Translations under genes and position numbers: made by a program | In this document: positions 3,281-20,433 of the stretch, piece after piece | Numbering within the stretch: the stretch's first letter is position 1 | Layout: each line of letters starts with the position of its first letter | Notes under the pieces: generated by a model | The model's input: the letters and a program-made list of their open reading frames with translations, nothing else | Database searches by the model: none | Told to the model about the DNA's origin: nothing | From: Cyanobacteria bacterium P01_D01_bin.156 | GTDB taxonomy: Bacteria; Cyanobacteriota; Cyanobacteriia; Phormidesmidales; Phormidesmidaceae | Direction: 5' to 3' | Length of the DNA stretch: 64,000 nt | Assembly: GCA_039024555.1 (NCBI GenBank) | Contig: JBCCQQ010000001.1 | Location: 32,001 to 96,000, forward strand

Positions 3281-3850
3281 ATGGAGCAGAAACGAATGTC
3301 GAGAGAAGTCACCATTACGGCTTCTCAACTCTCACAAGAATCAGATCAGGCCCTACAGCTGCTTGCATTGGGTGTGCTTTACGTCTCAGGCTTTTCCATT
3401 GTGGTTGAAGCAGGCCCACCCACTCCCTTATGGCTGCTTCTGGATAGTGCGTTTGTAACCGCTGCGTACCTAGAGAAACATAAAGCTCAGCTACCTGCCA
3501 TGTGGCGATGCCTTGTTCCTCAAAGTGTATGGGGACATGTAGCCCTGTCAGCGGTTACTACTGTCGCAGCTATTGGTCTATCGTTAACCTTTCCAAATCA
3601 AGCCCATGCCTTTGCACAAACGCTTGAGCAGAACATCGGGCAGTGCTTTCCTCAAGCCCAGGAAGGAATCAAGATAATATTCGGTTTGCTACGCCTGGGC
3701 TTGTCTATCTTCTTGCTGAGTCAAATGGTCTCATCTGTTGTTCAGATTGGTCGGGGTGAAAGCCCACTTCCCCTTTTGATTCCAGCATTAGCCGTTATTG
3801 CAGCGGTGGTCATTGTGGATTTCATGGCGACGTTTATTGGTGGCTGCTGA
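3281..3850 (+). CDS. Conjugation pilin-like membrane protein (VirB2/TrbC-like C-terminal half; Alr7204-like by position)
   Basis: AHA-F processing-like motif followed by two hydrophobic helices; first gene of the T4SS operon. Confidence 0.6.
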   Translation: MEQKRMSREVTITASQLSQESDQALQLLALGVLYVSGFSIVVEAGPPTPLWLLLDSAFVTAAYLEKHKAQLPAMWRCLVPQSVWGHVALSAVTTVAAIGLSLTFPNQAHAFAQTLEQNIGQCFPQAQEGIKIIFGLLRLGLSIFLLSQMVSSVVQIGRGESPLPLLIPALAVIAAVVIVDFMATFIGGC

Positions 3851-3860
3851 GGAGGTTGCA

Positions 3861-5639
3861 ATGACATCAAGACAGTATCTCAGAGTAATTCAGCAGCTAG
3901 GCCAGGGTAGTGGCATCTTGTTTCTTCCCGTCCATATGATTGGCCCAGCCGTGCTAATCAGTGGCGGTAGCATTGCTCTAAAAGCCATTCGACCAGATCT
4001 TCCTTGGTCGGTTCTTGGATTTATGGTCGTTGGTGGAACGCTCTTCTGGTTTCTGCTGACCTTTAAAGAAGGAAGTTTCCGGTACCTTAACAAGCTGTTC
4101 AAATCGCTACATCCACGCTGGCGACGTGATGATTGGAAGCAAGAGACTGCGATGGCGCAGCCTTTGTTGATGCAGAAAACTCCTGAGGTTGAGTCACCTG
4201 CTAAGCAGCTTAGAGCGAAACCGCTGTATAAAGAGTTTCACCTGGTTGCCATTATCCATTTTGTCTATCAAGACAAGATCGTAGAAGCCTGCTTACTAGA
4301 ACGAGAGTCATCCTTTTCTCGACTTCTAGGAGGAGCATCTGACTGGCGTGTGGTCTTTGGGTTTCAGACTCAGGGGATCCATTCATATACCACTGAGGAC
4401 CAATTTGCCAGGTCATATAGTTGTCTAGACATGGGGCTTCGTGAATTCTCTCAAAACGAGCATATTACCTTTTCCCTCCGGCTACGAGCCGATGCCTCAG
4501 ACTGTCGTGATGAACTACTTGGAACCATTGAAAAAGCCGACAATACCGCGTTTAAGATACTTGCGAGTTATGAGTTAGGGCGTCGCGAAGAGCTAGCCAC
4601 TGCCAGGCAGAGAAAACTTATGGACCTGTTGGTCTTTGCAACGTATACCGAAGAACGAGCACTGTTCCGTGGAGATGATTGGGTGGCATTGATTATCAAT
4701 AGTCTCCAAATGGGGTTACGCCTTAGTTGGCTACCGCTCAAGCTTGGACTTGCTCGTTACATTCATTATCTTAAAGGTGATGAAGCTCAGCAAGAGAGTG
4801 CTCAACTGTCTGCGTTTTTACGCAGGGCCTATACCGAAGGTTATTTTCATTGGGAGTCATTTTTGACCCAAAAGCTTAAGCTTTCTGATGCGATCGCACT
4901 TTCACGTGGTGAATACTGGCAAGAGATCTGGTCGCAGCTCAACGGCCCCGATCCTGTCTCTGACATCCCTCGCATTATTACTGTCACGGCTACAGGGAGT
5001 TCTGAAGAGATCACCACCCCCCTAGATCCCCGACGCATGCTGCTTCAGCACATTCCAGATGCTAGAAGTTCAACCGTAGATGTTGCCGGTAACTGCGTCA
5101 TGCTGGCTCGATGTATCGCCAAACCCGGTGGAGCCACCAGTGCGCGTGAGGTGATGCACTTCATTTTTGAGCGTATTCACGAGAGTAACCATGTTGAGAT
5201 TATCACCCAGCTGTCGAAGGCAGATAGCCAGATGACGCGGGCGTTACTGAATTTTCAGAGTCGTCGTGCCAGCCACGCCGCCGCAAAAGCAGACGCCATG
5301 AATATTCCAGATGTCGGGGCCTTGCAAAATAGGCAAGGCTCCCTCGACGCCGAATCTGCCATTCTTTCAGGCCAAGCGGTACTCAAAGTAGCGTTTGTTA
5401 TTAAAGTTACCGCACCGACCTATGCGGACGCCCACGCAGAGCTACGCAAACTTTGTCGTTGTTGGCCGATGCCGATGCAACTGGAGATAGATCGGTATGG
5501 AGCGTGGAGAACGTGGCTTCAGACGTTGCATAGCACTTGGGAACAACTGCTCGTCTATGGTCCGTTTGATCAACGACAGCTGATGCTGTCATCTGAGGTG
5601 CCATTGCTGCTGCCCATTGTGATGCCGAGGTGCGAGTGA
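3861..5639 (+). CDS. VirB3-like N-terminus fused to N-terminal half of VirB4-like ATPase
   Basis: ATG 3861 with GGAGG at 3851-3855; two N-terminal TM segments; ends ...AWRTWLQTL...EVPLLLPIVM, the segment that precedes the VirB4 ATPase domain in cyanobacterial homologues. Confidence 0.7.
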   Translation: MTSRQYLRVIQQLGQGSGILFLPVHMIGPAVLISGGSIALKAIRPDLPWSVLGFMVVGGTLFWFLLTFKEGSFRYLNKLFKSLHPRWRRDDWKQETAMAQPLLMQKTPEVESPAKQLRAKPLYKEFHLVAIIHFVYQDKIVEACLLERESSFSRLLGGASDWRVVFGFQTQGIHSYTTEDQFARSYSCLDMGLREFSQNEHITFSLRLRADASDCRDELLGTIEKADNTAFKILASYELGRREELATARQRKLMDLLVFATYTEERALFRGDDWVALIINSLQMGLRLSWLPLKLGLARYIHYLKGDEAQQESAQLSAFLRRAYTEGYFHWESFLTQKLKLSDAIALSRGEYWQEIWSQLNGPDPVSDIPRIITVTATGSSEEITTPLDPRRMLLQHIPDARSSTVDVAGNCVMLARCIAKPGGATSAREVMHFIFERIHESNHVEIITQLSKADSQMTRALLNFQSRRASHAAAKADAMNIPDVGALQNRQGSLDAESAILSGQAVLKVAFVIKVTAPTYADAHAELRKLCRCWPMPMQLEIDRYGAWRTWLQTLHSTWEQLLVYGPFDQRQLMLSSEVPLLLPIVMPRCE

Positions 5640-6988
5640 TGAGCCTTGAATTATTGAGCCTTAAAGGCGGGAGACCCACTCGCATCTCACTCACCGAATC
5701 AGTCTTTCATCTGCTAATTACGGGCAAGACCGGGTGTGGCAAAAGTGCCTTGGCTGTTCAGACTCTCATCGATAGCATGATTGCTGGAATGCCTGTCTCA
5801 GCGCTGGACGTGACGAAGCCAGACGGCAGTGGAACGTTTAGCTTTGTGCATTATATTGGTGGACGATATCAGGATTTACGGAGAGGAGGCAATCCCCTTG
5901 AGCCGCCTGATGTCCGATACTGTGCCGATGATCAAGAGCGCCAAGAGAAACTAGCCCAGTTTCGGCAGTCGGTCGCAGGCTTACTTCTTGCCATGACGAT
6001 CAGTCCCCAGGAGAGTGATGCTGATATTGTTCATGCGCTTGTGTATCGAGTCGTTTCAGCGTTTTATGATGACGTGTCGATTGCACAGCGTTGGCAGCAA
6101 GCCATCGAAGCAGGTCTAGGGACTTCTGCGTGGGAAGAGCAGCCGACCTTAAGGGATATGGTTAACTATTTTTCCCCTGAGAGACTTCAGATGAAACGTT
6201 ATGGAGAGCGTATTCGTGAAGTCAGCGCGCGGATGTTGCTAAAGCTTGAAGGATGGCTGAATAGGCCTCTAGGAGAGTCGCTCTGTATACCCAGACAGTA
6301 TGAGGATAACCACTTATGTGTGATCTATCCCTTACAAAGTCTTGATACAGATGAGGCTCCTGTCGTTGCTCAGAGGATTTTGAATGAAATCACTCGAAAA
6401 TCACTGAATTATCGTAACAGTGTAGTCTTTCTAGATGAAGCTCCCATTCTCCTTCAGCATGATGCGATTGCAGCTACGGTCGCCCAGATTATCTCGAAAG
6501 GCCGTAAAGATGGCACTCGAATGCTTATCGCAACGCAGGGGCCAGACGCCATCCAACGGTCACCCTTTCGAGCACAGATTCTCGATAATATCAGTGTGAG
6601 ACTGATTGGCGTCATTGAAGAAAGCTCAGTCACGGATTACGAAAACATCTTCAGGTATCCACGTGAGCTACTGATACCGTGCAGTGAACGAGGGTTTTAC
6701 CCATCTCGACAGCTTATCTGTAGTCATTGGTTAGTGGATAACAGAGGAATACTGACCCCGTCTCGATTTTTTGTTAATTACTTGACGTTAGCCCTCTGCG
6801 CCAATCAAGTAGAGGAAGTCGCTGCACGGGACCGACTACTCGCGTCCTTTCCAGAGGATGCCATAACTGCCTTTACGACCTTCGCTCATCTACTCAAACT
6901 CTCGTTTCGGAGTGGTCAATCTATCGAACGGTTGGTTGACGACTGGATAGCGGCCCATGTCCCGAAGCCCTTAATTCAAATGCCGTAA
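5630..6988 (+). CDS. virB4: VirB4-like conjugation ATPase, C-terminal ATPase half
   Basis: Walker A GKTGCGKS, Walker B VVFLDEAP, GRKDG...ATQ motif. Confidence 0.8.
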   Translation: MRVMSLELLSLKGGRPTRISLTESVFHLLITGKTGCGKSALAVQTLIDSMIAGMPVSALDVTKPDGSGTFSFVHYIGGRYQDLRRGGNPLEPPDVRYCADDQERQEKLAQFRQSVAGLLLAMTISPQESDADIVHALVYRVVSAFYDDVSIAQRWQQAIEAGLGTSAWEEQPTLRDMVNYFSPERLQMKRYGERIREVSARMLLKLEGWLNRPLGESLCIPRQYEDNHLCVIYPLQSLDTDEAPVVAQRILNEITRKSLNYRNSVVFLDEAPILLQHDAIAATVAQIISKGRKDGTRMLIATQGPDAIQRSPFRAQILDNISVRLIGVIEESSVTDYENIFRYPRELLIPCSERGFYPSRQLICSHWLVDNRGILTPSRFFVNYLTLALCANQVEEVAARDRLLASFPEDAITAFTTFAHLLKLSFRSGQSIERLVDDWIAAHVPKPLIQMP

Positions 6989-7012
6989 TTGTTGTGTATC
7001 TAAGAAAAAACG

Positions 7013-7792
7013 ATGCGACTTCGCCAAATTTTACTTGCTTCTGTCCTTGCCTGTGGTGGCCTTGCATGCACCGCTGGAGCCTACGCTCAATTTTTTCCTG
7101 ATAGTATGTTCTCGTTCCCTGGTAGTCATTCAGCAAATGAGAATCTGTGGCCAGAACTCCACGGAGTTTATGAAGACTCCTATAATCGCTTGGAGGATAT
7201 TCTTGCTGACACCATTAATGAACAATTTGGTGTACTAAGTGATGCCGTTGAAGATATTCTCGCGTCAACTCTTAGCGAGCTAGGTATTGTCGATATCGAG
7301 CAAGCCAAAGCACAGATACACGACTTACTGAAACGTGAGCACAGCGACTTTGACTTGTATCAATTCCCGGTAACTCAGCAACTAACCGCATGGCTTAATC
7401 AAGTCAATCGTGCTCAGGTAGAATCCCGTGCTCACGCTGTTATTGGCACGACTGGCCAGCAGGCAACCACCCTTAAACTAGAACAGCTCCAGCAGGACAT
7501 TGTTGAGGTTGGCCTACTCGCTGATGAAGCACAAGGAGACATTGCTACGCAGGATGTACTCAAAAGGGTTGCCGAACAAACCGCGATCAATACTCAGATT
7601 CTAGGTGCCCTTCATTCAGAAACCATTGATACGCGCCTTGATACCCATTTACAGGGTCAAGTACTGGTTGATGTTTCAGAAGCACTGGCCGCTGAGCGCA
7701 AGCAGCGACTCTATGAAGAATTAGCAACCACCACCAGCGCTTTTTATGGTGCCGCGAGTTACATGCTCACAGTGACCCCACCGGAGGAATAA
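7013..7792 (+). CDS. Secreted helical T4SS protein (Alr7207-like by position)
   Basis: Signal peptide (AGAYA-Q), helical composition, TQDVLK motif, follows virB4. Confidence 0.6.
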   Translation: MRLRQILLASVLACGGLACTAGAYAQFFPDSMFSFPGSHSANENLWPELHGVYEDSYNRLEDILADTINEQFGVLSDAVEDILASTLSELGIVDIEQAKAQIHDLLKREHSDFDLYQFPVTQQLTAWLNQVNRAQVESRAHAVIGTTGQQATTLKLEQLQQDIVEVGLLADEAQGDIATQDVLKRVAEQTAINTQILGALHSETIDTRLDTHLQGQVLVDVSEALAAERKQRLYEELATTTSAFYGAASYMLTVTPPEE

Positions 7793-7797
7793 TACTT

Positions 7798-8811
7798 ATG
7801 CTACTCCTTCAAGTAGCCCCTAATCTCTCTCTGCAAGATACACAAATCATCTTTGAGACCGTCAGTAGCTCATTTGATCAAATAGTGACTGATTTATTTA
7901 CGAAGCAGGGCATCTTCACAGCCTTGGTGACCTATGGACGAGTAATTTCACTGGGTGCCTCTACCTTTTGGATTGTGCAATGGAGTCGAAAGGTGGCCAG
8001 TGGCCAGGAGGCGATGTCAAAGCTAGTATGGCCCCTTGTCTGTGTCATTCTCTTCTCTAATCAGGGGAAACCGCTTGCTGCGATTAATCTTGGCGCACGG
8101 TCTATCGTCAATCAGATTACGACAGGAATTCTTTCAGAAACCGTCAATGGGTTGAAACTGCAGACTGCCATGAGTCAAGCCCTCGCTCAGGGCTCAGCGG
8201 CTCAATTTGGAGCATTGGCTCAGCGAGCCTGCGCCGACCTATCTGAAGGCGAACGTATACAGTGTCTTGAAGACTATGATGCACAACTGCAGCAACAATT
8301 GAAGCAGCTTCAACGCGATAAAGACAGTGAGGCGTGGTACTCGGGAATTACTCAATATCTGAGTATTAAAAAGCTCAAAGAGTCGTTGATTGGTGATCTA
8401 GCGCTGACGCTCGAACTAGCTGCTTTTTCAGCTGTGTTCTATGGAATCGCGACCGTGATGGTCTGGACAATTGAAATCGCTCTGATAATTTTCATGGTGA
8501 CATCTCCGATTGCTGTGGGTCTTTCTCTCTTACCTGTTCCAGGTAGACCTCTTATCGTGTGGGCGTCAACATTTATCGGCATTGGGATGGCGAAGATTGG
8601 TCTCATTACCTCTAATGCGATTGCCGCCAGCGTGGTGGTGTCTTCGTCAGCAAACCTAAATACTGTGCTATTACCTCTCTTCATGGCTCTGGGAGCTCCT
8701 GTAATTGCGACAGGACTTGCCGTTGCTGCAGGAGGAGGCACGTTTCTCTCGATTGCAGCAGGGCCAGTCGCCTCAGTCTCTCTTTTAAGTCGTCTTTTCA
8801 GCAAAAAATGA
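7798..8811 (+). CDS. VirB6-like polytopic membrane protein (Alr7208-like)
   Basis: Multiple TM segments, WP...ILFSNQG and PIAVGLSLLP motifs, operon position. Confidence 0.7.
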   Translation: MLLLQVAPNLSLQDTQIIFETVSSSFDQIVTDLFTKQGIFTALVTYGRVISLGASTFWIVQWSRKVASGQEAMSKLVWPLVCVILFSNQGKPLAAINLGARSIVNQITTGILSETVNGLKLQTAMSQALAQGSAAQFGALAQRACADLSEGERIQCLEDYDAQLQQQLKQLQRDKDSEAWYSGITQYLSIKKLKESLIGDLALTLELAAFSAVFYGIATVMVWTIEIALIIFMVTSPIAVGLSLLPVPGRPLIVWASTFIGIGMAKIGLITSNAIAASVVVSSSANLNTVLLPLFMALGAPVIATGLAVAAGGGTFLSIAAGPVASVSLLSRLFSKK

Positions 8812-9533
8812 AACCACTACTCTCAACTCGTCCAGCATCCAGCCGTCTGCCAATGCTGGTCACTGTGCTCGCATTTCTGCAATTTGGTGCGCTTGGTTCT
8901 TCATTGTTGCAGTGGGGCGCAATCTCCCGATTATTGGCACAGGATAGGGTTTATCTCCATACCGAGGTCGGGGAGATCCATACACTGCAAAAGATAGATC
9001 CACGTCATAAAACACCAGAAGTTATACAAGCGTTTACGCTCAAAGCATTGATGCTGCTTTATTCTTGGCCTGGGTCACAGCCTAATCACTTTGGACAGAT
9101 AAAGACAGATACGGGGGTTGACGTTGATGTTGGAGATGAGGTGTTTAAGGTTCCCACCCACGTCGCTCAGGCAATTTTTCTAATCATTCCAGGATTTCGA
9201 GAGGCTCTGCTCAAACGAATCGATCAGGTATTGCCGAGTGATTATTTTAGCGGATCAGTTGAAGTGTTACTGGTAGTAGATGAAATTACCCTGCCCAAAG
9301 AGATTGAGCCAGGACGCTATGAGCTAATAGTCGTCGGGAATCGCTACACCGTCCATAACGGCCTGCTGCCCGGTCAGCGAGAGGCATTTAATAAGGTCGT
9401 TACGGTAGAGACTTCACACCTCTCTGCCATACCCATCGGAGAAACTCAACTAGCCCGCCAAGTGTTTGGAGTGCGTTCAGCGGGGTTAGTCATTGTCGAT
9501 ATTCATGATATGTCATTTGAGGAACAACAATAA
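8808..9533 (+). CDS. VirB8-like bitopic T4SS protein (Alr7209-like)
   Basis: Single N-terminal TM, ATGA overlap with the upstream gene, C-terminal RSAGLVIVDI. Confidence 0.6.
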   Translation: MKPLLSTRPASSRLPMLVTVLAFLQFGALGSSLLQWGAISRLLAQDRVYLHTEVGEIHTLQKIDPRHKTPEVIQAFTLKALMLLYSWPGSQPNHFGQIKTDTGVDVDVGDEVFKVPTHVAQAIFLIIPGFREALLKRIDQVLPSDYFSGSVEVLLVVDEITLPKEIEPGRYELIVVGNRYTVHNGLLPGQREAFNKVVTVETSHLSAIPIGETQLARQVFGVRSAGLVIVDIHDMSFEEQQ

Positions 9534-11263
9534 TGTACGCTCAAGAATTTGATAAAGATCGTATTTTCGAGATGGCTGGCGTTGAGTTGCAGTCTGATGA
9601 ACCACTGCTCACGCCAGAACAAACGCAACAATTTATTGATGAAGAAGAGAAGAGCGAGGGTTGGGGGGATAACCCCATAGTTCGTGCGCTTGTAATTGCT
9701 GCTGTCATCGGAGTAGGCGGTGGAGGTTTGTTTTTGCTGTCGGGACTTGGCAGAGGGGGAAATCCCCCCAAGCTAGCTAACGATGAGTCTGAGGCTGCTC
9801 AGCAAGAGCTTCTTGCTCGCATTACACAGCTGGAGCAACAAAATTCTGAGCTGAAAGCTGAGCGAGCGATTGGAGGGCTATCTGATGAACCATCTAAGGT
9901 GTCAGACGCTCCCTCTAATACAGATGAAGCAGAGGTATTGGACAATGATGATTTGCAGCGTGAGCAGCCCGATACGATTGCAACGAAGCCAGAGTCGGTA
10001 CCTGTTCCAGGTCCTCGTCAGACGGCGCTGCCGCCGCCACCGCCGCCGATTCAGCCAGTGTATCAAGCACCTCGGTTGAGCCCTGGTCCGTTAGTGCAGC
10101 AGGTTCCTGAGATCGTTCCGGTTGCTGATTCGGTAGTAGTGACACCCCCGGTAGTTGAGCCGGTGGCAGAGTTACCCCCTCAATTTACAGCACCAGCCGA
10201 ACCGATTTCGCCGTCAGTCTCTGCGCCGGTGCCGGAGGAACCCGATACACCACCAACTCAAATGCCTTTTATTCCCGAGGATATAGAACCAGTACAGGTG
10301 GCCGTAGACTTCAAGGCTCCCGTTACTAAGCAGGTGCTTACCGGGACAGAAGCTCGCATCCAACTGGAGCGCGAGCTGAGCTGGGAGGAAGGCCGCAGTC
10401 AGGATCGCCGGATATTAGCCGAGTTGTTGGAACCGCTTCTGTTTGGTGATGGTACAACCTGGCTGGAACCAGGTACTAGGCTGGTATTGGCTAATCAAGG
10501 TATTACAGGCCGCCACGGTGAAGTCCAGTTGGATGTGATTGCCTATCAACACGGGGGCAGGGAACACGTCGTAGAGGCTGGAGCATTTGTGGTGCAGGCT
10601 GCCAATGGTGATATGGTCGTTGCCCGTAAGCACGGCGGACGCACACTTGGAGATGACATCACAGATATTGTTGTCGATGCAGCGGTTGAGGAAGCTCAAG
10701 AGCTGATTGAAGACTCGGTTGGTGGTATTGGCGGTGAGATTCTCAGCTCTGCTCTAGAACGTAATAAAGCAATTCTTGAGCCGTCTGTTGAACGTCCGAC
10801 ACGCTACGTGTTGGAGCGCGACGCAGAGTTAACGCTGGAAGTAAATCAACCCATAGAAGTGACCGTTGAGCCTGAAGTGGTAAAAGTTGCCGAGATTCCC
10901 GAATCACCTGCTTCTCAGATTGCAGTGACCGAACCGCCTGAAGATTTGGCTGCTGATTTTGCCGCAGCTGCTCCACAGGTTCGAGTACTCGAACCTGCGA
11001 TGGCTGCTGGCCGCGAGCAAGATCCTCCCACATTAGCCGAGCCGCAAGCAGACGTGCTTCAGCAAGAGCAGGAACTTCCTACCCTAGAGCACCTTATCGC
11101 GACCATTCCCGATCGAGATCGTGGCACTGAGTCCGTTGTTGTACAGAATGAAATCAATGAAGTATTTTCCTCGCAGACTGCTCCTCGTATTTCTGAGCGT
11201 TCTGTTAGTCCTACCGCTCCTGCGCAGCCGTGCGATCGCACAACAATCCCCGGTACCCTCTAA
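9533..11263 (+). CDS. TrbI/VirB10-like protein (Alr7210-like)
   Basis: TM segment, coiled coil, Pro-rich linker, then a beta-rich domain (LTGTEARIQL...LEPGTRLV). Confidence 0.7.
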   Translation: MYAQEFDKDRIFEMAGVELQSDEPLLTPEQTQQFIDEEEKSEGWGDNPIVRALVIAAVIGVGGGGLFLLSGLGRGGNPPKLANDESEAAQQELLARITQLEQQNSELKAERAIGGLSDEPSKVSDAPSNTDEAEVLDNDDLQREQPDTIATKPESVPVPGPRQTALPPPPPPIQPVYQAPRLSPGPLVQQVPEIVPVADSVVVTPPVVEPVAELPPQFTAPAEPISPSVSAPVPEEPDTPPTQMPFIPEDIEPVQVAVDFKAPVTKQVLTGTEARIQLERELSWEEGRSQDRRILAELLEPLLFGDGTTWLEPGTRLVLANQGITGRHGEVQLDVIAYQHGGREHVVEAGAFVVQAANGDMVVARKHGGRTLGDDITDIVVDAAVEEAQELIEDSVGGIGGEILSSALERNKAILEPSVERPTRYVLERDAELTLEVNQPIEVTVEPEVVKVAEIPESPASQIAVTEPPEDLAADFAAAAPQVRVLEPAMAAGREQDPPTLAEPQADVLQQEQELPTLEHLIATIPDRDRGTESVVVQNEINEVFSSQTAPRISERSVSPTAPAQPCDRTTIPGTL

Positions 11264-12338
11264 TATTCCAGATTTTGGGGCACTGACCTTTGATTCCTTG
11301 CGGTTTAGCGAGTCTGGAAATGTCGATTTACGGGGTGTTGTCTCACAGCTTGGCTACGATGCCTCGCGCACTTGGCAAGCTGGTAACAGTCTCGCTGGTA
11401 TTACAGAACTTGGTGACTTTGGTGGCAGCTTTCCCTATAGCTTGCGTGGAATAGCATCTGTGGCAGGGTTTGATATAGGCCGTTACCGCTTATCCGGCCT
11501 GGGGCGATTGCTTGGCAATCAGACTATAGGCGATGTGGTGCAGGCTATTCCCAGTTTGCGCAGCAGGCGGATTGACGAGGTAGCAGTGATCGCCAGCCTC
11601 TTAAGACGATCAGGGGTACGTTATACCGCTGAAAACACAGTGAACGATATCTTACTTGACTCACGTCTTGCAGGACTTCGTTTAGGGGCTGTGAATTTGT
11701 CGAGACATTCACTTGCTGCGCTTCCTGGGGTAGTTGATGTCCGTCTCGATCAATTTGGTAGCTGGCAGACTATTCGATTCTCAGAAATCGCAGGTTTGGG
11801 CTCGTTGCCGATTACTTCACTGTCGCGATCACCCGATGAACCTCAACAATTTCAGAACAATTCTCTGCAAGAGCCTGATATGCGCCGTGCACTTGTTCAA
11901 GCCGATATCGTATTTTCCTCAGCAGAGAAGAAGGCATTAAGAAGTATCTCTGGTAGCTACAACGAAGGCTTCCAGGTAGCGTGCCAGCAGGAACGAGGGT
12001 GCCCGCATGTAGAGCTAACCAACAGATGTATTTTCGGAGAGGGTTGCATTCAACTGGCTGTGGACCCGAGGATGACGCCGCTGAGGGGTAAGCAATGGAT
12101 TAGCGGGCGATATCACAAAGTGATAGGAGGTAGCGGACTGCTTACAGGCCTTGAGCCTACAGGTCGACACCCGCTTGGTGACAATTTCAAAATGGTTCTG
12201 ACTGACATGGACGAGAGCAGAGGAGAGGCTACGTTTGCTGCTTACTTTCGCATCTGTAGCCCCGTAGGCTGTAGTCCTTATCTGATAGGTCCTCTGCCGC
12301 TTTATGTGGTACGTGAAAAAGGTTTGTTGTTGATGTAG
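11148..12338 (+). CDS. Secreted cyanobacterial conjugation protein (Alr7212-like)
   Basis: Signal peptide (RAIA-Q), Leu-rich IPxL-type repeats, C-terminal CPHVEL...GKQWISG...EPTGRHP...GCSPYLIGP. Confidence 0.7.
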   Translation: MKSMKYFPRRLLLVFLSVLLVLPLLRSRAIAQQSPVPSNIPDFGALTFDSLRFSESGNVDLRGVVSQLGYDASRTWQAGNSLAGITELGDFGGSFPYSLRGIASVAGFDIGRYRLSGLGRLLGNQTIGDVVQAIPSLRSRRIDEVAVIASLLRRSGVRYTAENTVNDILLDSRLAGLRLGAVNLSRHSLAALPGVVDVRLDQFGSWQTIRFSEIAGLGSLPITSLSRSPDEPQQFQNNSLQEPDMRRALVQADIVFSSAEKKALRSISGSYNEGFQVACQQERGCPHVELTNRCIFGEGCIQLAVDPRMTPLRGKQWISGRYHKVIGGSGLLTGLEPTGRHPLGDNFKMVLTDMDESRGEATFAAYFRICSPVGCSPYLIGPLPLYVVREKGLLLM

Positions 12339-12343
12339 AGGAG

Positions 12344-14083
12344 GTGAGTGTTATGGACGACGTTATTCACAAGTTAATAGTAGATGCTGGTGAATACAAA
12401 GCTCTAAAGGAGTTGTTGTTAACCCCCAATATGGTCTTGCTGATGGGTATCTTGGTGCTTTGCGGCCTGCTCTATTTGTTGGAAGATAGGTTTGGTAAGA
12501 ACGACAAGCTGGCCACTGCCCGTTTTGCTAGCAACAAGGAGCGTGAGCACGCCAGACGTGAGTGCCTAAAGCAGATGATAGCCCGCAAGCACAATGAGGT
12601 GGGCCTTACCATTGGCACGCCAACGAGCAGGAATGATCGTAAGCGCGTTTATATTCCAGATTCCCAGCGCTCAATACTCGGTGTTGGGGGTCCGGGCACT
12701 GGTAAGTCATTCAGTTTTATAGATCCTGTCTTGCTTTCTACACTCCAGCAAGGATTTCCTACTATCTTGTACGATTTTAAGTATGCTAGCCAGGCCAAGC
12801 TAGCTGCATATGCAGCTAGCTTGGGTTACGAAGTACATATCTTTGCGCCTGGGTATCCAGAAAGTGGAGTGATTAACCCTTTACAGTTCTTGCGATCTCC
12901 GTCTGATACGGAGAGCAGTCGTCAGTTGATCACGCTGATGAATAAAAATCTTAGAGTGCTCACCAACTCAGCTGCCAATCGTTTTTTTGATACAGGCGGT
13001 GACCAAATAGGAGAGGGTGTGCTGTGTCTGGCGAGAGCCACTGAGTATCCCGATTTGTTGATGACCCAAACTATCTTGGGGCTTCCTCAACTGGTTGAAC
13101 GCCTTGCTGCAGCTGAGCATATCAACCCATGGGTGAAAAAGTCCTTTTCCCAACTGCTAAGTGTGCAGAAGGCTCCAGAAACTGTTTCAGGTCTGCTTGC
13201 CAGTGCCTCAGAAGTATTCAGCCGCATGATGAAGTCAAACTTACTGGCAACATTTTGTGGAGAGTCTTCCATTCCCTTGGACCTCAACGATAAGCAGCTG
13301 ATTATCTTCGGCATGGACCGCGTCAGACGTGATGTAGTGGCTCCAGTGACCGCAGCGATTATCAATATGCTTATCACCTTAAACGTGGCGCGTACACGAG
13401 AACTTCCACTTTGTGTCTTTTTAGACGAACTCCCGACCTTAGTGCTGCCGAGTCTGGCTCAGATGATCAATGAGAACAGGAGTGACGGGTTAGTTTGTGT
13501 GGCAGGTATACAGAGCTTTCCGCAGTTAGAAAAAACCTATGGTCGTGAGCTAGCACGAGTCATTTGGGCGGGCTTTGGACACAAGATCATTTTCAATCCA
13601 CAGGATGGCACTACTGCCGAGGAAATATCTAAATTCCTCGGCAATAAGGAGATCAGATATAAGCAGCGATCTCGCAGCTATGGTCACAAATCGGGGCGTA
13701 GTCGGAGTGTGAGCGAACAGCGACAAACACAACCGCTGATCTCAGCTTCAGACCTTCTCAAAATGAAGACGGGTGAATGTGTAATTATCAGTCCAGGCTT
13801 TGCCAACAAGAAAGAAGCGTATCTCCCCCTTAAAACAAAGATCAAAATCCCCAAACATGACCAGAAGATAGCCACGTTGAGTAAAAAGATATGGCCATCC
13901 ATCCAGCAGGAATTAGTCGCACGCTCCCAAGCACGACCGCCCACGGAGGCCGATGTGATTGCTCGCCAGCGTGTAGCTGAGAGACTGCTTCCCTTGCCAG
14001 AGGAGGCAGCCACGCAGCATGAGCATCAGGGTGCTGATTATTTTCAAGAGCAAGTAAGGGAAAGACTCAAGGGATGGCTCTGA
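12344..14083 (+). CDS. virD4: Type IV coupling protein (VirD4/TraD family)
   Basis: N-terminal TM, Walker A GGPGTGKS, YDFKY, INPL, Walker B FLDELPTL, GIQSFPQLEKTYG, TAEEISKFLG. Confidence 0.9.
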   Translation: MSVMDDVIHKLIVDAGEYKALKELLLTPNMVLLMGILVLCGLLYLLEDRFGKNDKLATARFASNKEREHARRECLKQMIARKHNEVGLTIGTPTSRNDRKRVYIPDSQRSILGVGGPGTGKSFSFIDPVLLSTLQQGFPTILYDFKYASQAKLAAYAASLGYEVHIFAPGYPESGVINPLQFLRSPSDTESSRQLITLMNKNLRVLTNSAANRFFDTGGDQIGEGVLCLARATEYPDLLMTQTILGLPQLVERLAAAEHINPWVKKSFSQLLSVQKAPETVSGLLASASEVFSRMMKSNLLATFCGESSIPLDLNDKQLIIFGMDRVRRDVVAPVTAAIINMLITLNVARTRELPLCVFLDELPTLVLPSLAQMINENRSDGLVCVAGIQSFPQLEKTYGRELARVIWAGFGHKIIFNPQDGTTAEEISKFLGNKEIRYKQRSRSYGHKSGRSRSVSEQRQTQPLISASDLLKMKTGECVIISPGFANKKEAYLPLKTKIKIPKHDQKIATLSKKIWPSIQQELVARSQARPPTEADVIARQRVAERLLPLPEEAATQHEHQGADYFQEQVRERLKGWL

Positions 14084-14118: not shown

Positions 14119-15450
14119 ATGGAACAGAATGGATACCAAAACGGCTTTGACCACACGGAAGACGCACAACCTACACAGGCTGATACTGAACAGGCACGAG
14201 CAGCTGGGGAATCGATGACCAATGCGCTGTTTGAGCTACTCGAACAGCTACGGAAGGCGGTCCCATCATATCAAAACGGTAATGGGGACAGGGTAAGCAA
14301 CACCCCTATCGAAATTAAGCTTGATCACATCGCCTATTACCGAGATGGAAGTCAGGATAAACCTTCATTTAACCTCACCACCCTCAGTGATGTTGATTAT
14401 TTGCACTATGCCCTGAAACAATCTCCTGGAAAACGTATCGGGGGGCGGGATAACAGCATTACGATCACAGTTGGAGGGCAGCCAGTCTTTAAGGCTGAGG
14501 CCGGGATTGTGACCCACAATACGGTGCCACAACCGACAGTTGACCAGGTACCCGTTTACCAGCCGGGGCCACAATACTATAGTGCGCCTCAAATGGCAGC
14601 GATGCCAGTCCCACCCATGATTGTCCAGAGTCCTGTCACATTGGAACGCTCACGAGATAAAGCGCCTTCCTTTTTGGAGCGAATTGACCAAGCCAGTGAG
14701 ATTGAAAAACCCTCGGTTCGTCAAGATAAATGGATGAAGATGAAGCCGAGTACTCGTCTCCAAATGGCGATAGAACGCCTATTTTCGTTCAAAAAGAAGG
14801 GCCAGGCCGTTGACGTGGCTATGGAGCTGCTTCAGCGTTATGGGACACGACAAGGAGATGAATTTGTGTATGAGGCCCAGGGTTACCGAATACGTGGAGT
14901 CGGGCGACATGTTCTGGTTGAAGACCGCGAGGGCCGTGGACTGATGGCGTTCAAAACCAAAGTGTTTGGTCGTCCCGCGATCAAAAGTTACAAGCTTGAC
15001 TCCACCCAAGAGATGGAATTCTTGAGAGTGCATACTGAGTTGGCAGATCGTAATTTTGAGGGTATTTCTTCAGATCCACTGCTAAGAGCAATGCAGCTCA
15101 GAGGTCTGGCACCGGATGGAGACACGCAAATTGTTGATGACCTAAAAGCCCTCTCCGTATCGGATATTGCCCGAGATTTGCTCAATGCCAGCGGTAGTCA
15201 ACCAGATAAAGAGGGGACTCGCGTGCTGGATGGCAAGCAGTATCGCATCGTCCATAGTCCTGAAAGCCTGAGTATCTATGCGAAGGGTGGGCGAGGTCTG
15301 GTGTTCAAGCAACAGGGAGGTACCATTGATTCAAAGCTCACAGCAGCAGATACCAAGCATTTCATATTCGTGAGTAAGGAGCTTGCGGCGCTTCAAAAGC
15401 AGCGGGCCGTGCAGTCGATTCAGCCCCAGGTCAATGGTATGCGGCTATAA
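14119..15450 (+). CDS. Hypothetical T4CP-adjacent protein with two copies of a novel-looking domain
   Basis: SD AAGGAG upstream; C-terminal ~90 aa align to the C-terminus of 15933-17636; a weaker internal copy lies near 14800-14960. Confidence 0.8.
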   Translation: MEQNGYQNGFDHTEDAQPTQADTEQARAAGESMTNALFELLEQLRKAVPSYQNGNGDRVSNTPIEIKLDHIAYYRDGSQDKPSFNLTTLSDVDYLHYALKQSPGKRIGGRDNSITITVGGQPVFKAEAGIVTHNTVPQPTVDQVPVYQPGPQYYSAPQMAAMPVPPMIVQSPVTLERSRDKAPSFLERIDQASEIEKPSVRQDKWMKMKPSTRLQMAIERLFSFKKKGQAVDVAMELLQRYGTRQGDEFVYEAQGYRIRGVGRHVLVEDREGRGLMAFKTKVFGRPAIKSYKLDSTQEMEFLRVHTELADRNFEGISSDPLLRAMQLRGLAPDGDTQIVDDLKALSVSDIARDLLNASGSQPDKEGTRVLDGKQYRIVHSPESLSIYAKGGRGLVFKQQGGTIDSKLTAADTKHFIFVSKELAALQKQRAVQSIQPQVNGMRL

Positions 15451-15493
15451 GTGCCAGTTCACCTGTTTTTTAATACAGCCAAAGGTTTTTTCA

Positions 15494-15919
15494 ATGCAAC
15501 AAACACATAAACAAAATAAATCAGGCTATCGCGTTCCTTTGAGTGAAGCAACAAAAGCCGAAATAGAAACAAGAATCACTCATTTTCTTATGTCAGCAGG
15601 GATCATGGAACAAGTCACGAGTGATCAGAATTTCAGTCTCAAAGTTAGCCATGGTCAGTATCATCCTTTAACGATCCGTCGCAATGGATCCGAGATTGAA
15701 TTTAGTCAAAGCGGCATTAACAACGACGGTAGCTTCATTGGCACCGAGCTGACTTTTGCAATTGGCAGAGATGGATTGCTGTCATTTAAAGACTCGTTAC
15801 GGTTTATGAATGGCCCAAGTCTTGCACCGACGTTCTCTGAATCGCTTTTACAGCAAGGGTTTCCCAATTTTGTAAAAGCGGCTGTGATGCAATGCCAGAA
15901 ATCACAGCTCAAGCTTTGA
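15494..15919 (+). CDS. Hypothetical protein, DUF6908-like
   Basis: ATG at 15494 is in frame with the track ORF; FLMSAGI...FSLKV...YHPLTI...ELTF...FSESLLQQGF pattern recalled from plasmid/ICE DUF6908-type domains. Confidence 0.5.
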   Translation: MQQTHKQNKSGYRVPLSEATKAEIETRITHFLMSAGIMEQVTSDQNFSLKVSHGQYHPLTIRRNGSEIEFSQSGINNDGSFIGTELTFAIGRDGLLSFKDSLRFMNGPSLAPTFSESLLQQGFPNFVKAAVMQCQKSQLKL

Positions 15920-15932
15920 GTAGGAGGAAATC

Positions 15933-17636
15933 ATGTCTCATGACGCGATGGTCAGCTCATTTGCCCATCATTTTGAGGTGGGAAAGGGATTTTCATCGAT
16001 TCAAGACGCCCGAGACCACGCTGCCGTGATTCTCGGCACCCTAGTACAACCTGGCACTGCTCAGGCAAAGTTGGTCGATGAAGCGATAGAAAATGGCGTT
16101 ATTCGAGCTGCCAGAACACTGGTTCAGCAGGCTCCCACACCCGAAGTGGCCTATCAATCGTTAGTGGATTTGTATAACCGTCATCCGCCGCTCAAGGTGA
16201 GATCATCTACAAGTGTTCAGCTCAAGGCGTACAGCACCCCTATACCCATAGCCTATCTTGCCTCAGTGCTGGCAGGCATTAGCCCAAAGACCACGGTTTA
16301 TGAGCCGACTGCTGGGAATGGTGCGTTGTTGATTGAGGCAACTCCCGAGCATGCAACCGTCAATGAGTTAGATGCTGAGCGTGCTGCAGCATTGAGGACT
16401 CAGGGATTCAGGGTTACTGAAAACGATGCGCTTAATTTTGTCCCCGACAAGAAGCATGATGCAATTATCATGAATCCACCCTTTGCAGGATATGCCAAGA
16501 ATGAAGGCGGCTACAAACAATTTGACACTGGGTATTACCAATCCAGCTTTTGCGATCATGCGATCGCACTACAAGCACTTAGGTCTTTGAAGCCTGATGG
16601 AAAAGCAGTGCTGATTTTATGTGGTCAGCCTGAAAATCAGGTGCATCGCTACAACTGGAGTCATTCAAAAAAGTTCTATCAAACCCTCTACCAGCAATAC
16701 AACGTGACTGATCATGTGACTGTAGCTGGCAAACTCTATGAGAAACAAGGAGCTGCCTACCCCATGGATATCATCGTGATACAGGGGACAGGTCCATCAG
16801 CACGTCCATTACCGGGTGAACAATATCCTCGCAGATATAACTCTTTTGAGGAACTAGGAGCGCTATTGCAGTGGAAGTTGCGCGAACAAGGAGTAGCTAC
16901 AACCATGCCATTAAACTCTGTGAAAGACGCCTTAGCTGCTTTAGAGCAGGGCTCGGCAGTACACTCGGCTGATCATGTTCTAACGATTGCAAGTCGTGAC
17001 GAGGGCAACACATATGTCTTGAAAACACCATTGCAGGTGAGCATTGGTGGAGCATACTATCTCGATGAAGAGCTGCTCAAAGCAGCAGGTTCTCCCTTTT
17101 TCTCAGCAAAGGGTCACATGGAGAATGTTATTCCTGCTGAAAAGTTAGAAGCAACACTTGCTGTGCTTATGAAGAAAGGTACACCGCTTATAGCCGTTGA
17201 AGCTTCACATGTTGGGGAGGAGTCGCTAACACAGGCCACAACATCCCTGAAGGAGCAGAGCGATTGGTATCGGATCGTGCAAGACATTCCGCTCAACGAT
17301 GACTTGAGTAGTTACGCCGCAATTAATACAGCTCGACATTTGCTTGAAATAAGTGGGATACAAGCCGACATGCAGGGGAGGCGGTTACTGGAAGGGAGCC
17401 TCTATCGTATTGAGGAATTTCCCAAAGGCTTGAGTATTCAATCTAAGAACGGAGGCGAAATTATCCGTCTAGAAGAGGGGAAGCTTACTAGTGATCTCTC
17501 AAATGAAGATATTGCACGTTTTAGCATCATTTCTGAGCGGTTATCTGAGCTCGTTCAGCAGCGTGAGGGTTTGACAAAGCTTGTAACCAGCGGTCGGTCT
17601 AATAATCACAACTCAAACGCTCAAACTAAACTCTAA
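15933..17636 (+). CDS. N6-adenine DNA methyltransferase-like protein (plasmid DarB/strawberry-notch N-terminal type) with shared C-terminal domain
   Basis: AYSTPIPIAY, SAM-binding YEPTAGNGALL, catalytic IMNPPF; SD AGGAGG; no helicase motifs follow. Confidence 0.8.
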   Translation: MSHDAMVSSFAHHFEVGKGFSSIQDARDHAAVILGTLVQPGTAQAKLVDEAIENGVIRAARTLVQQAPTPEVAYQSLVDLYNRHPPLKVRSSTSVQLKAYSTPIPIAYLASVLAGISPKTTVYEPTAGNGALLIEATPEHATVNELDAERAAALRTQGFRVTENDALNFVPDKKHDAIIMNPPFAGYAKNEGGYKQFDTGYYQSSFCDHAIALQALRSLKPDGKAVLILCGQPENQVHRYNWSHSKKFYQTLYQQYNVTDHVTVAGKLYEKQGAAYPMDIIVIQGTGPSARPLPGEQYPRRYNSFEELGALLQWKLREQGVATTMPLNSVKDALAALEQGSAVHSADHVLTIASRDEGNTYVLKTPLQVSIGGAYYLDEELLKAAGSPFFSAKGHMENVIPAEKLEATLAVLMKKGTPLIAVEASHVGEESLTQATTSLKEQSDWYRIVQDIPLNDDLSSYAAINTARHLLEISGIQADMQGRRLLEGSLYRIEEFPKGLSIQSKNGGEIIRLEEGKLTSDLSNEDIARFSIISERLSELVQQREGLTKLVTSGRSNNHNSNAQTKL

Positions 17637-17736: not shown

Positions 17737-18084
17737 GTGAAAAAGAAAACCTACAATACTAACCGCGTTCTTTTGACTGGTTTTGTCGGTGAAAAGGTTG
17801 ACCACAAGAAGGTAGGAGACCCAGTTGTCAGTGTTGCTACTTTCTTTCTAGGAATCCCTTATGAAGAAGACAATGGTGAGAAAACAAGCTGGGAAACTCA
17901 TGCGATAGAAACTTGGCGTGGACTTGCCGATCTCTGTAAGGAGAAGCTTACAAAAGGTTCAAAGGTGTTAGTTGAGGGCGCACTTCGCCAAGATCGTTGG
18001 GATGACAATGATAATAAAACCCAATTTCGAACTTATATTCGCGCTGATCGCGTGGAATTCCTTAAGCTCAAGAGGCCGGAGTAA
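17737..18084 (+). CDS. ssb: Single-stranded DNA-binding protein
   Basis: NRVLLTGFVG, W..LADLCKEKLTKGSKVLVEGAL..RW OB-fold motifs; no acidic tail. Confidence 0.9.
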   Translation: MKKKTYNTNRVLLTGFVGEKVDHKKVGDPVVSVATFFLGIPYEEDNGEKTSWETHAIETWRGLADLCKEKLTKGSKVLVEGALRQDRWDDNDNKTQFRTYIRADRVEFLKLKRPE

Positions 18085-18271: not shown

Positions 18272-19198
18272 ATGGATTTAGAAGAGCTATATCGTTCGCT
18301 GAGTTTTCAAGATATTGAAGAATATATTGCGATTGGACAAGAAGAAAACTTATACATTGATTTCAAGTTATTGAATAGCCCGAGCCTTGACCGTCGTGAA
18401 GATCGCAAGACGTTTGCCAAAGCTTTATCAGGGTTTGCCAATTCTAGCGGTGGCCTAATTATTTGGGGGGTCGATGCTCGTAAAAACGAGTATGGAATTG
18501 ATTGTGCATGTGATGGTCGAGAAATTCAACCTCTGTCGCTTTTTATTTCCAAACTCAATAAGTTTACTGGTGAATTCGCTTCTCCAATCATCGATGGTGT
18601 CCAGCACAAAAGAATTTCTACACAGGACGATAAAGGCTATGCTGTGACTTTTGTTCCGCCAAGTGATGCTGGCCCTCATATGGCCAAAGCAGGTGAGGAT
18701 CGTTATTACAAGCGTAGTGGTGATAGTTTTTATAAAATGGAGCATTTCGATATTGAAGACATGTTCGGGAGGAGAAAACGTCCATTATTATCATTGAAAG
18801 CAAATATCCAACCAGGAAGTATTACAACGTCTGGCAATCAGAAACACTATAGACCTAATATCACCTTGATTATTGAAAACATTGGACGTGGTAGCGCACG
18901 TTCTATATATATAGCGCTTAGATTTGAGTCTGGGCACAAGATACGTCGTCAAACGGGTTTTATTTTATCTCCGTTGCTAACTGTTGATAAAGAGAAGATT
19001 TGTTTTGGAGGCAGTTCTGATATCGTTGTTCACCCCGGAACGCATATTAATCTTTGTAATGTCGAATACGAAGTGTCAGACTCCAACGCAAGCCCTGAAA
19101 ACATTGTAATTCATTATGATGTAATAGCTGAAGATACCAGAATGCGTCATGATATACTTCAGATAATCGGCTCGGATATTTTAAGTCAGCTAGAGTAG
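18272..19198 (+). CDS. Schlafen/AlbA_2-domain protein with beta-rich C-terminal domain
   Basis: EENLYIDFK, ALSGFANSSGGLIIWGVD, PHMA...RYYKRSG motifs; C-terminal ITLIIENIG..SA (Ig-like pattern). Confidence 0.85.
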   Translation: MDLEELYRSLSFQDIEEYIAIGQEENLYIDFKLLNSPSLDRREDRKTFAKALSGFANSSGGLIIWGVDARKNEYGIDCACDGREIQPLSLFISKLNKFTGEFASPIIDGVQHKRISTQDDKGYAVTFVPPSDAGPHMAKAGEDRYYKRSGDSFYKMEHFDIEDMFGRRKRPLLSLKANIQPGSITTSGNQKHYRPNITLIIENIGRGSARSIYIALRFESGHKIRRQTGFILSPLLTVDKEKICFGGSSDIVVHPGTHINLCNVEYEVSDSNASPENIVIHYDVIAEDTRMRHDILQIIGSDILSQLE

Positions 19199-19304
19199 TA
19201 TATCTACTTTTCTTACTTCAATATTGAACGGTTTCTATAATTTCTTTGAAGCCTTGACCAAGTAAAGATGTAGGAACTATTGTTGTTGGAAGTTACTCTA
19301 ATAA

Positions 19305-19326
19305 AGGAGGCAAAGAATTGCCTCCT
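19305..19326. terminator. Hairpin between convergent genes
   Basis: AGGAGGCAA-AGAA-TTGCCTCCT; a T-rich tail follows on the - strand. Confidence 0.65.
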
Positions 19327-19338
19327 GATTTCCTGAAA

Positions 19339-20274: not shown

Positions 20275-20340
20275 CCTCCTGAAAAACAGAAGGTCAGTTG
20301 GTACTAATTTATTTTTTTAGTCAATAAAAAACGAGAATGC

Positions 20341-20433
20341 TATAGCAATTTTGTCTCGATCGAGGTACGTCTTCAACCCCTGAGCCCTTGCCAATAAAAA
20401 ACGCCGTACTTCACTGGATATGAAAACGCTATA
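20341..20433. mobile_element. IS630-type MITE (~93 bp)
   Basis: TATAGC...GAGGTACG / CGTACTTCACTGGATATGAAAACGCTATA ends with TA; right end nearly identical to that of 38680-38773. Confidence 0.6.

Follow-up and report, generated by a model that had tools for sequence, protein, structure and literature searches.

What is the role of a domain of ~90 residues that closes two otherwise unrelated proteins encoded close to a type IV coupling protein? The window analyzed here, a stretch of 64,000 nucleotides from Cyanobacteria bacterium P01_D01_bin.156, contains these proteins as A (14119..15450, forward strand, 443 aa), whose gene is kept beside the coupling-protein gene, and M (15933..17636, forward strand, 567 aa). 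An earlier note had proposed that their common domain is a signal for type IV secretion (T4SS). The terminal copies lie at residues 340-429 of A (15136..15405, forward) and residues 456-544 of M (17298..17564, forward), and the hand count of the note holds exactly: 35 of 90 positions are identical (38.9%) with one gap. The pair is recovered by tblastn within the window (E 2e-15), and its local score is 164, whereas 1000 shuffles reach 66 at most. BLAST gives no second common segment, in agreement with the claim that the remainder of the two proteins is unrelated. A recent DNA duplication behind the two copies was ruled out, with 142 of 266 bases identical. The weak third copy claimed within A is also real, although it is longer (14788..15048, forward, approximately residues 224-310) than the 14800-14960 first given. 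The pairwise score of this diverged first copy, 50 against a shuffle maximum of 53, is not significant by itself; it reaches 23 bits with the family HMM, and hhalign of 51 first copies, cut from relatives of A, against the 45-row domain alignment gives a probability of 97.1% (E 6e-11, 80 columns). Protein A, which has no Pfam family, thus consists of an N-terminal region of no assigned function, a low-complexity linker, the two tandem domains and a short tail.

The surroundings of these genes are those of a conjugative element. Upstream of the coupling-protein gene, MPF_C-type mating-pair genes (3798..12338, all forward) comprise a VirB4-like ATPase in two coupled ORFs (3798-5639 and 5630-6988), VirB6-like (7798-8811), VirB8-like (8808-9533) and VirB10-like (9533-11263) ORFs, and two further mating-pair ORFs (7013-7792 and 11121-12338). 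None of them matches a Pfam family over the cut-off, and the VirB names were assigned from position, homology and the available text on this class (PMC4027160). Six mating-pair ORFs match genes of Nostoc PCC 7120 plasmid alpha (pCC7120alpha) in the same order; the VirB10-like ORF matches locus L049 and not pCC7120alpha. The Pfam families PF10412, PF12696 and PF02534 bear out the earlier identification of 12344..14083 (forward) as a VirD4/TrwB-like coupling protein (TrwB_AAD_bind E 1e-28, also TraG-D_C and T4SS-DNA_transf), and this protein is the predicted receptor. Between A and M lies a stand-alone homologue of the DUF6908 region (15383..15919, forward, likely ATG start 15494) that lacks the ~90-residue domain. 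It has no Pfam match itself, and it is similar to four giant methylase-helicases (blastp E 3e-16 to 1e-4), in three of which Pfam locates DUF6908. A single-strand DNA-binding protein follows M (17737..18084, forward; Pfam SSB E 7e-18), and a profile search of the genome gave no domain copy in it. Together with a MOBF relaxase and an integrase-like gene upstream of the window on the same contig (C1), these genes identify the element as an MPF_C conjugative system with VirB4, VirB6/8/10-like proteins, a coupling protein and an element-borne relaxase.

The family HMM that the earlier note had called for recovered the domain on relaxases, primases and methylase-helicases, in a family of 496 clusters at 50% identity. 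The domain does not map to a known unrelated family: no convincing match was found in Pfam (best E 0.005, a single member), NCBIfam, PHROG (one member, E 0.009) or the PDB sequences (best E 0.43), and a literature search, mostly outside subscription journals, found no description of such a domain. After exclusion of P0067, a false match with MBG repeats, the 149 top representatives include four relaxases (two MOBQ, one MOBP and one MOBF), two Prim-Pol primases, seven methylase-helicase/DUF6908 proteins, ten peptidoglycan-degrading or -binding proteins and one PIN protein, and 114 have no Pfam family. An organism could be assigned for two of 30 representatives looked up, both cyanobacterial. 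Further relaxases with the domain occur on the mobilizable plasmids pC (MOBQ, 64 bits) and pB (MOBF, 32 bits) of Crocosphaera ATCC 51142 and in loci L119 (MOBF, 41 bits) and L125 (MOBQ, 68 bits), and pCC7120alpha carries two domain-bearing genes (WP_010999746.1, 43 bits; WP_010999771.1, 27 bits). Furthermore, an HMM restricted to 31 copies taken from relaxases, primases, PIN proteins and hydrolases places A and M on top of the 40,889 reading frames of the genome (domain E 7e-13 and 2e-10).

The domain might instead be a general interaction or oligomerization module that has been spread by mobile DNA and has no dedicated secretion role, and some carriers fit such a module. An internal copy is found in a WD40 protein (L124), and a FolD-domain fusion cluster appears in the Atlas listing by structure alone (TM 0.75; the family search in 401 genomes covered the best 150 of 574 matches). 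In addition, the domain occurs in part away from T4SS loci, which the earlier note had regarded as a point against its proposal: 13 of 30 domain-positive genomes of the phylum sample contain it in an HTH-antitoxin/PIN-domain pair on the chromosome. The 12-20 kb retrieved around these modules contained no T4SS homologue, and in eight of these genomes no coupling protein was found with the present query. However, of 150 proteins examined, 143 have the end of their last copy no more than 30 residues from the C-terminus, a strict terminal bias that is not expected of a general module; two to four copies are present in 74 of the 150. A common tail pattern, although picked post hoc, recurs among the 149 proteins (103 have it, compared with 15% of long genome frames), and fusions of a toxin–antitoxin toxin to a signal of the relaxase type are already known as substrates (VbhT; PMC5675462, as far as its available text goes). 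Gln, Ser, Arg and Lys make up 37.5% of the final 25 residues (23% in long genome frames); the tail mostly closes with an acidic-hydrophobic motif, with Arg as the final residue in 55 of 149 proteins and Glu at positions -3 and -2 in 46 and 40, respectively. With the link to coupling proteins described below, these data make the general module very unlikely.

The terminal copy of A is predicted with good confidence (pLDDT 93.2, pTM 0.82) as a helix (2-19), a five-strand meander and a second helix (70-92). A single-sequence fold of residues 211-443 of A (pLDDT 52) was left out of the evidence. The best VIA-align match to the domain model has Z 5.2 (rmsd 2.7, 62 aligned), with nothing at Z of 8 or more, and Foldseek gave no match at E of 0.001 or less in the PDB or BFVD, results from which it does not follow that the fold is new or different. 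Among the least significant Foldseek rows are MoSub1/PC4 and PURA (E 0.18-0.46, TM about 0.25), and many carriers act on DNA; both points would suit a domain that binds single-stranded DNA, so that its proteins travel with the transferred strand or process it. These fold matches are not significant, however, conservation falls on Gly, Tyr, Leu, Asp and Phe and does not outline a basic patch, and the same domain is found on cell-wall hydrolases. Binding of single-stranded DNA is therefore highly improbable as its function.

A more specific connection is given by the coupling proteins. In 57 coupling-protein loci, which were collected independently of the domain, a clear copy lies nearby in 17 and a weak copy in nine. 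In trees of the coupling proteins (quick IQ-TREE and FastTree runs, with long-branch warnings), one side has 15 clear and six weak copies in 23 loci (21/23), whereas the opposite side has no clear and three weak copies in 31 loci; one clade there has none in 24, a count that represents approximately three independent lineages only and that was obtained with an HMM trained on the positive branch, which a diverged form may escape. Such a branch-specific link is not expected of a general module. In the source genome, four of the five clear domain matches are in its two T4SS loci, and the fifth is at a contig end. Relatives of A with the domain lie directly 3' of the coupling-protein gene in most mapped loci.

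Co-folding of the coupling protein (residues 52-560, a monomer without the membrane anchor) with the terminal copy of A, as proposed in the earlier note, gave a passing score of 0.82, against 0.00 for the best of three controls; one of the three runs scored 0.00. Of 157 solved complexes, 116 pass the mark applied, as do 2 of 215 mismatched pairs; it is a rough guide here, where the alignments were our own. At least 2% of contacts are common to the runs, and the partner pLDDT is at least 77. In the model, the domain would contact the nucleotide-binding domain and the C-terminal helix (residues 78-97, 135-137, 155-161 and 503-516), not the all-alpha domain. Most of the modelled interface residues vary among coupling-protein relatives, and positions 155, 156, 160, 509 and 512 differ between the branches, a difference that is confounded by kinship. 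The passing model, too, speaks against a general module.

Contact with the coupling protein could also mean that the domain docks proteins on the coupling complex inside the donor and is itself not carried, with A as an adaptor or structural subunit that recruits a domain-less relaxase, presumably in the manner of TraM, MobB or TcpK. Several observations fit: A-like genes adjoin the coupling-protein gene from Gloeobacter (Gloeobacter morelensis plasmid pGMOR1) to Nostoc, the model places the contact elsewhere than on the all-alpha domain, and stand-alone domain proteins of 109-133 aa exist. Furthermore, neither the MOBF relaxases of the two elements of the source genome (C1:26190-27446 and C48:5008-6789) nor the MobV relaxase of pCC7120alpha contains a copy, so that DNA transfer by these elements cannot rest on a relaxase-borne domain. 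However, it is hard to see what use PIN toxins, primases and peptidoglycan hydrolases lacking signal peptides would have at the cytoplasmic side of the donor, and the two roles are compatible: A could serve as the adaptor and other domain proteins as cargo. Docking as the sole function is thus considered unlikely.

The hydrolases bear on transport. A near-identical tandem tail is present on four of them with unlike heads (GH108, M23 plus glucosaminidase, GH19-like and VgrG3-like). None of the ten peptidoglycan proteins has a signal-peptide-like start, and a membrane-like stretch is found in one of 149 domain proteins compared with 32% of 2341 long genome frames; the hydrolases therefore require a way across the inner membrane. 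In locus L146 the coupling-protein gene is followed by a WG-repeat protein whose N-terminus is hydrophobic and then by GH108-domain-domain. This is the one locus with a candidate upstream immunity gene among the hydrolase contexts recovered; two M23-domain genes, in G608 and G667, have no such neighbor and lie apart from their coupling-protein genes. The hydrolase loci comprise one from genomes and two orphan M23 loci, the latter among seven of 301 genomes that match P0014, five of which match the N-terminal enzyme part only. No hydrolase locus was recovered from metagenomes, and none with the ~90-residue domain from viral contigs. It is conceivable, though we hold it only tentatively as a whole, that these conjugation machines double as protein injectors with their own signal fold, delivering interchangeable hydrolases (with immunity genes) and toxin–antitoxin toxins to contacted bacteria besides DNA-protecting cargo, that the tag is borrowed by chromosomal orphan genes and by mobilizable plasmids for access to a resident machine, and that stand-alone copies compete for the coupling protein. 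If true, this would be a contact-dependent cyanobacterial weapon reaching back to the Gloeobacterales.

Protein M may illustrate the DNA-protecting cargo. Residues 1-312 form an N6-adenine methyltransferase (N6_Mtase E 3e-5, NPPF motif) with 42-51% identity over 312 aa to giant relatives, residues ~343-446 form a small domain whose counterpart in those relatives comes after the helicase, and the terminal ~90-residue domain follows. M has no helicase and hence not the architecture of a Strawberry-notch (DarB-like) methylase-helicase; by sequence it is a helicase-less short form of one. A one-off deletion was ruled out by four full-length short-form relatives, which are 557-574 aa long with 43-54% identity and each carry the terminal domain. 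A point against a signal role is that no terminal copy was detected in six giant methylase-helicase-Toprim proteins, although they are complete and lie in domain-positive loci. Polyvalent proteins and DarB-like methylase-helicases are giant multi-domain proteins that are thought to be delivered with incoming DNA (PMC5512222); M resembles them as a short form and differs in the missing helicase. The main text of that paper, as available, mentions cyanobacteria once and names no secretion signal. The methylation of incoming DNA by M against restriction is a possibility, although a somewhat doubtful one.

The reading that we prefer is that the domain is probably a translocation signal of MPF_C type IV secretion that is read by the coupling protein. 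The modular C-terminal tag of the earlier note thus gains strong comparative support from the terminal position on varied cargo, the branch link and the co-fold, while the lack of the domain on the element's own relaxase and the chromosomal PIN fusions away from T4SS genes count against it; the family, terminal position, head shuffling and branch link are computed, the coupling-protein contact is modelled, and translocation is inferred. The domain would be the folded half of a two-part C-terminal signal, with the short polar tail as the other half. This signal would serve a large branch of the cyanobacterial (MPF_C) conjugation systems, whose coupling protein would bind the domain and pass the tagged protein to the channel. 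Primases, methylase-helicases and M may then arrive in the contacted cell as helpers of the incoming DNA, and the same cell may be reached by mobilizable-plasmid relaxases and by some cell-wall hydrolases or toxins. MPF_C is among the least-studied T4SS classes, and a 90-residue tag makes its substrate choice testable in a laboratory strain, since two genes with the tag are present on pCC7120alpha, the model plasmid. The domain HMM is also a substrate finder, with three quarters of the top 149 representatives lacking a Pfam family, and points to possible interbacterial effectors in cyanobacteria. Restriction limits the engineering of cyanobacteria, and the tag could be a native handle for delivering methylases or editors into them.

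Among known systems, the nearest in machinery is MPF_C itself, which is modelled on pCC7120alpha with eight structural profiles (PMC4027160) and to which the window operon is syntenic and homologous. The available text of that study gives no substrate signal for MPF_C and states that its authors found no studies, experimental or computational, on the conjugative systems of cyanobacteria. The XVIPCD of Xanthomonadales X-Tfe effectors, according to the accessible part of its description (PMC8740702), is likewise a folded C-terminal domain with a Gln-rich tail on cell-wall hydrolases and is read by the coupling protein, as is proposed here from modelling. However, it is alpha-alpha-beta-beta-beta by NMR and binds the all-alpha domain of VirD4, whereas the present domain is predicted to be alpha-beta5-alpha, is often in tandem, is modelled on the nucleotide-binding domain and C-terminal helix, and also occurs on relaxases and primases of conjugative elements. 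The XVIPCD family PF20410 has no match at E of 1 or less in the source genome and is absent from the families listed for 45 copies and 149 representatives; a solved XVIPCD is absent among the fold-search matches listed, where an unlisted family could still match. The BID domain of Bartonella Beps, the VbhT toxin and alphaproteobacterial relaxases is, in the portions available (PMC6509941, PMC5675462), a four-helix bundle with a hook and a positively charged tail. The present domain differs in being mostly beta in the model, in having no sequence match to BID and, apparently, in a tail that ends mostly acidic-hydrophobic. Nevertheless, both are ~100 aa, bipartite with a tail and found in terminal and non-terminal tandem copies, both are common to relaxases and toxin–antitoxin toxins, and both co-evolve with a coupling-protein branch, so that BID appears, by analogy, to be the closest functional parallel of the ~90-residue domain.

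The C-terminal domain of about 90 residues that the earlier note had described as common to the ORF at 14119–15450 (A, 443 aa) and the N6-adenine methyltransferase at 15933–17636 (M, 567 aa) was recovered by a search within the window, with 35/90 identities, one gap and an E value of 2e-15; the segment alignment scored 164, against a highest score of 66 for shuffles. Since only 142 of 266 bases are identical between the two DNA copies, the copies are old. A weaker third copy inside A, also described in that note, was confirmed at about residues 224–310 by profile comparison (97.1%, E 6e-11), although it is below significance in pairwise comparison. The gene preceding A encodes the coupling protein (12344–14083). 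The predicted fold (AlphaFold2, pLDDT 93.2) consists of a helix, five strands and a helix, for which fold searches gave no clear structural neighbour, and no fitting sequence family was found in Pfam, NCBIfam, PHROG or PDB. No description of such a domain was found in the literature searched; the supplements of PMC5512222 could contain one.

A search of 173 genomes from the order with a two-sequence profile gave matches in 60 (E ≤ 0.01), some weak rows of which (e.g. loci L059, L060 and L068) dropped out with the later HMM. An iterative search yielded a 45-row alignment. Run against 1.84 billion representatives, it matched 496 clusters with E ≤ 0.001, of which 182 reached E ≤ 1e-10. Architecture counts rest on the best 150 of the 496 clusters; P0067 was dropped as a repeat artefact, leaving the domain in 150 of 151 stored proteins. 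The last copy ends at most 30 residues from the C-terminus in 143 of these 150, which carry one (76), two (61), three (12) or four (1) copies. The domain is real, widespread and without a name so far. Stand-alone domain proteins of 109–133 aa, partly adjoining T4SS genes and partly far from them, were also observed (L051:10811-11194, L061:3402-3767, L062:10387-10773, L063:9637-10026, L145:11403-11780, L191:9812-10210 and L192:9400-9726), and are candidates for competition for the coupling protein (fertility inhibition).

C-terminal fusions to relaxases, primases and methylases, for which an HMM search had been suggested, were found. No Pfam family was detected in 114 of the 149 scanned representatives; the others include four relaxases (MOBQ, MOBP and MOBF), two Prim-Pol primases, seven methylase-helicase or DUF6908 proteins, M itself, ten peptidoglycan-degrading or -binding proteins, one PIN, one GHL10 and six proteins with TSP3 repeats. 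Furthermore, L127 contains a DNA polymerase A–Toprim fusion with the domain, and two mobilizable Crocosphaera plasmids encode relaxases, one MOBQ and one MOBF, that both carry it terminally. A large domain-ending protein without a Pfam family (1100–1750 aa; L120:8579-13420, L129:4049-9250 and L168:8777-13606) is common on large Nostoc plasmids, its terminal segment matching 46 plasmid records (33 from Nostoc). When an HMM was built from relaxase, primase, PIN and hydrolase copies alone (31 in all), with boundaries set by the family HMM, A and M ranked first in the genome, so that all of these copies form one family. A closely similar tandem tail is shared by four hydrolases with different heads. 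None of the ten peptidoglycan-related proteins has a hydrophobic N-terminus, and a membrane-like stretch occurs in 1/149 domain proteins, some of which may be partial, versus 32% of 2341 long frames. In one Gloeobacterales assembly the coupling-protein gene is followed by a WG-repeat protein with a signal-like start and then a GH108–domain–domain protein, an order that recalls, at this single locus, immunity–effector pairs.

M corresponds to the first 312 residues of the 2100–2500-aa Strawberry-notch methylase-helicases, joined to a small post-helicase domain and the terminal domain; the preceding ORF matches their DUF6908 region. Four relatives (557–574 aa) have this short architecture and also end in the domain, and the NPPF motif of M is intact. 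It is plausible, from the literature on polyvalent proteins (PMC5512222) and orphan plasmid methylases (PMC12282955), that M shields incoming DNA from restriction. At the end of contig C103, a 76-aa fragment (L005:4833-5060) closely resembles the C-terminus of the methylase-helicase on contig C48, implying a third, unassembled gene of this type.

The contig belongs to a 6.6-Mb genome with a second T4SS on C48. The operon at 3798–14083 shares homology and gene order with the T4SS on plasmid alpha of Nostoc PCC 7120, the MPF_C model of PMC4027160, where the evidence for cyanobacterial conjugation is termed circumstantial, citing Muro-Pastor 1994. Upstream of the window lie a 417-aa MOBF relaxase (TrwC homology, E 2e-11) and, named by sequence appearance, an integrase-like gene and a ParA/ParB-like pair, so that the element is probably an integrated conjugative element. 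The VirB4-like ATPase (3798–6988) is encoded by two ORFs whose stop and start overlap, the break falling immediately ahead of Walker A. On C48, pCC7120alpha and pGMOR1 a single 940-aa ORF encodes it, and its C-terminal half is also a separate ORF in L072. The split may be natural rather than damage. The SSB (17737–18084) is 98% identical to that at L072:19047-19391, whereas the coupling proteins of the two elements share only 38%, which suggests recent exchange of the SSB gene. Beyond it, 18272–23765 encodes a Schlafen/AlbA_2 protein, a second N6 methylase (minus strand) and a NACHT-HEAT-FGE-sulfatase protein, likely defence or cargo, and 24853–35415 encodes a 3520-aa RHS-repeat protein with Ig-like, SdrD_B, vWA and DUF4114 domains.

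Among 401 genomes of the phylum, with at most 13 domain and three coupling-protein candidates scored per genome, the domain occurred in 30, the coupling protein in 42 and both in 17. All 57 coupling-protein matches were inspected with 2.4–38 kb of surrounding DNA; a nearby copy reached at least 25 bits at 17, 13–25 bits at nine and was lacking at 31 (the reversed-frame null peaks at 8.5 bits). In a FastTree of 54 coupling proteins, the three without sequence being left out, one side had 15 clear, six weak and two absent copies, and the other none clear, three weak and 28 absent, including a clade of 24 wholly without a copy. The association of the domain with one side of the tree falls short of proven co-evolution, because the clade of 24 amounts to a small number of independent lineages, the training copies of the HMM came from the opposite side and long branches meet. 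A second coupling-protein clade (L149–L163 and L197–L205; 626–651 aa) has another gene layout and no detected domain, and should use another signal. In the genome of the window, four of the five clear matches lie inside its two T4SS loci. In Gloeobacter morelensis pGMOR1, the domain ends both the methylase-helicase and the gene following the coupling protein.

The suggested co-fold of coupling-protein residues 52–560 with the terminal copy of A passed, giving 0.84, 0.82 and 0.00 (median 0.82) against 0.00 for the best of three controls; the pass mark, only roughly applicable here, was met by 116/157 solved and 2/215 mismatched pairs. Contact agreement between runs was at least 2% and partner pLDDT at least 77. 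The PDB searches gave no similar complex, which makes memorisation by the model a less likely cause of the pass. The model supports binding of the domain to the coupling protein. In the model, the domain contacts the coupling protein through both of its helices, at residues that do not belong to the all-alpha domain, which we take, from TrwB anatomy, to span about 175–295. We consider it probable that the domain and tail are a translocation signal, which the coupling protein would read; A may be cargo, or an adaptor for the domain-less relaxase.

Several observations bear against this reading. Six complete methylase-helicase-Toprim giants lack the domain, though in domain-positive loci, as do the relaxases of both elements of this genome and MobV of pCC7120alpha. 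Docking may instead be the only role of the domain, with A an adaptor for the domain-less relaxase; we regard this as unlikely. Convergent with the domain-less C48 relaxase, a 227-aa ORF (L003:1752-2438; C48:6752-7438, minus strand) resembles two degenerate copies, at a whole-protein E of 0.11, the reversed-null level, and is a possible adaptor. The M23-domain genes of genomes G608 and G667 are far from coupling-protein genes or on another contig, and the Atlas gave a candidate FolD fusion by structure. In 13 genomes a chromosomal HTH-antitoxin/PIN pair with the domain sits amid housekeeping genes; the DNA fetched around these pairs contained no T4SS homologue, and the query used found no coupling protein in eight of the 13. 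These loci (L106–L118) place an HTH_17 antitoxin and a domain-ending PIN_3 toxin at several chromosomal sites, with PIN and the domain split apart in L111 and an apparently reduced pair in L113. Such copies could just as well be stranded or re-purposed.

A precedent for PIN toxins ending in the domain is VbhT, a BID-fused TA toxin that is secreted by a conjugative T4SS (PMC5675462). In the proposed translocation role, the domain would work like the folded signals BID and XVIPCD while being a member of neither; the binding site of XVIPCD (PMC8740702) differs from the one modelled here, which is predicted to lie outside the all-alpha domain of the coupling protein.
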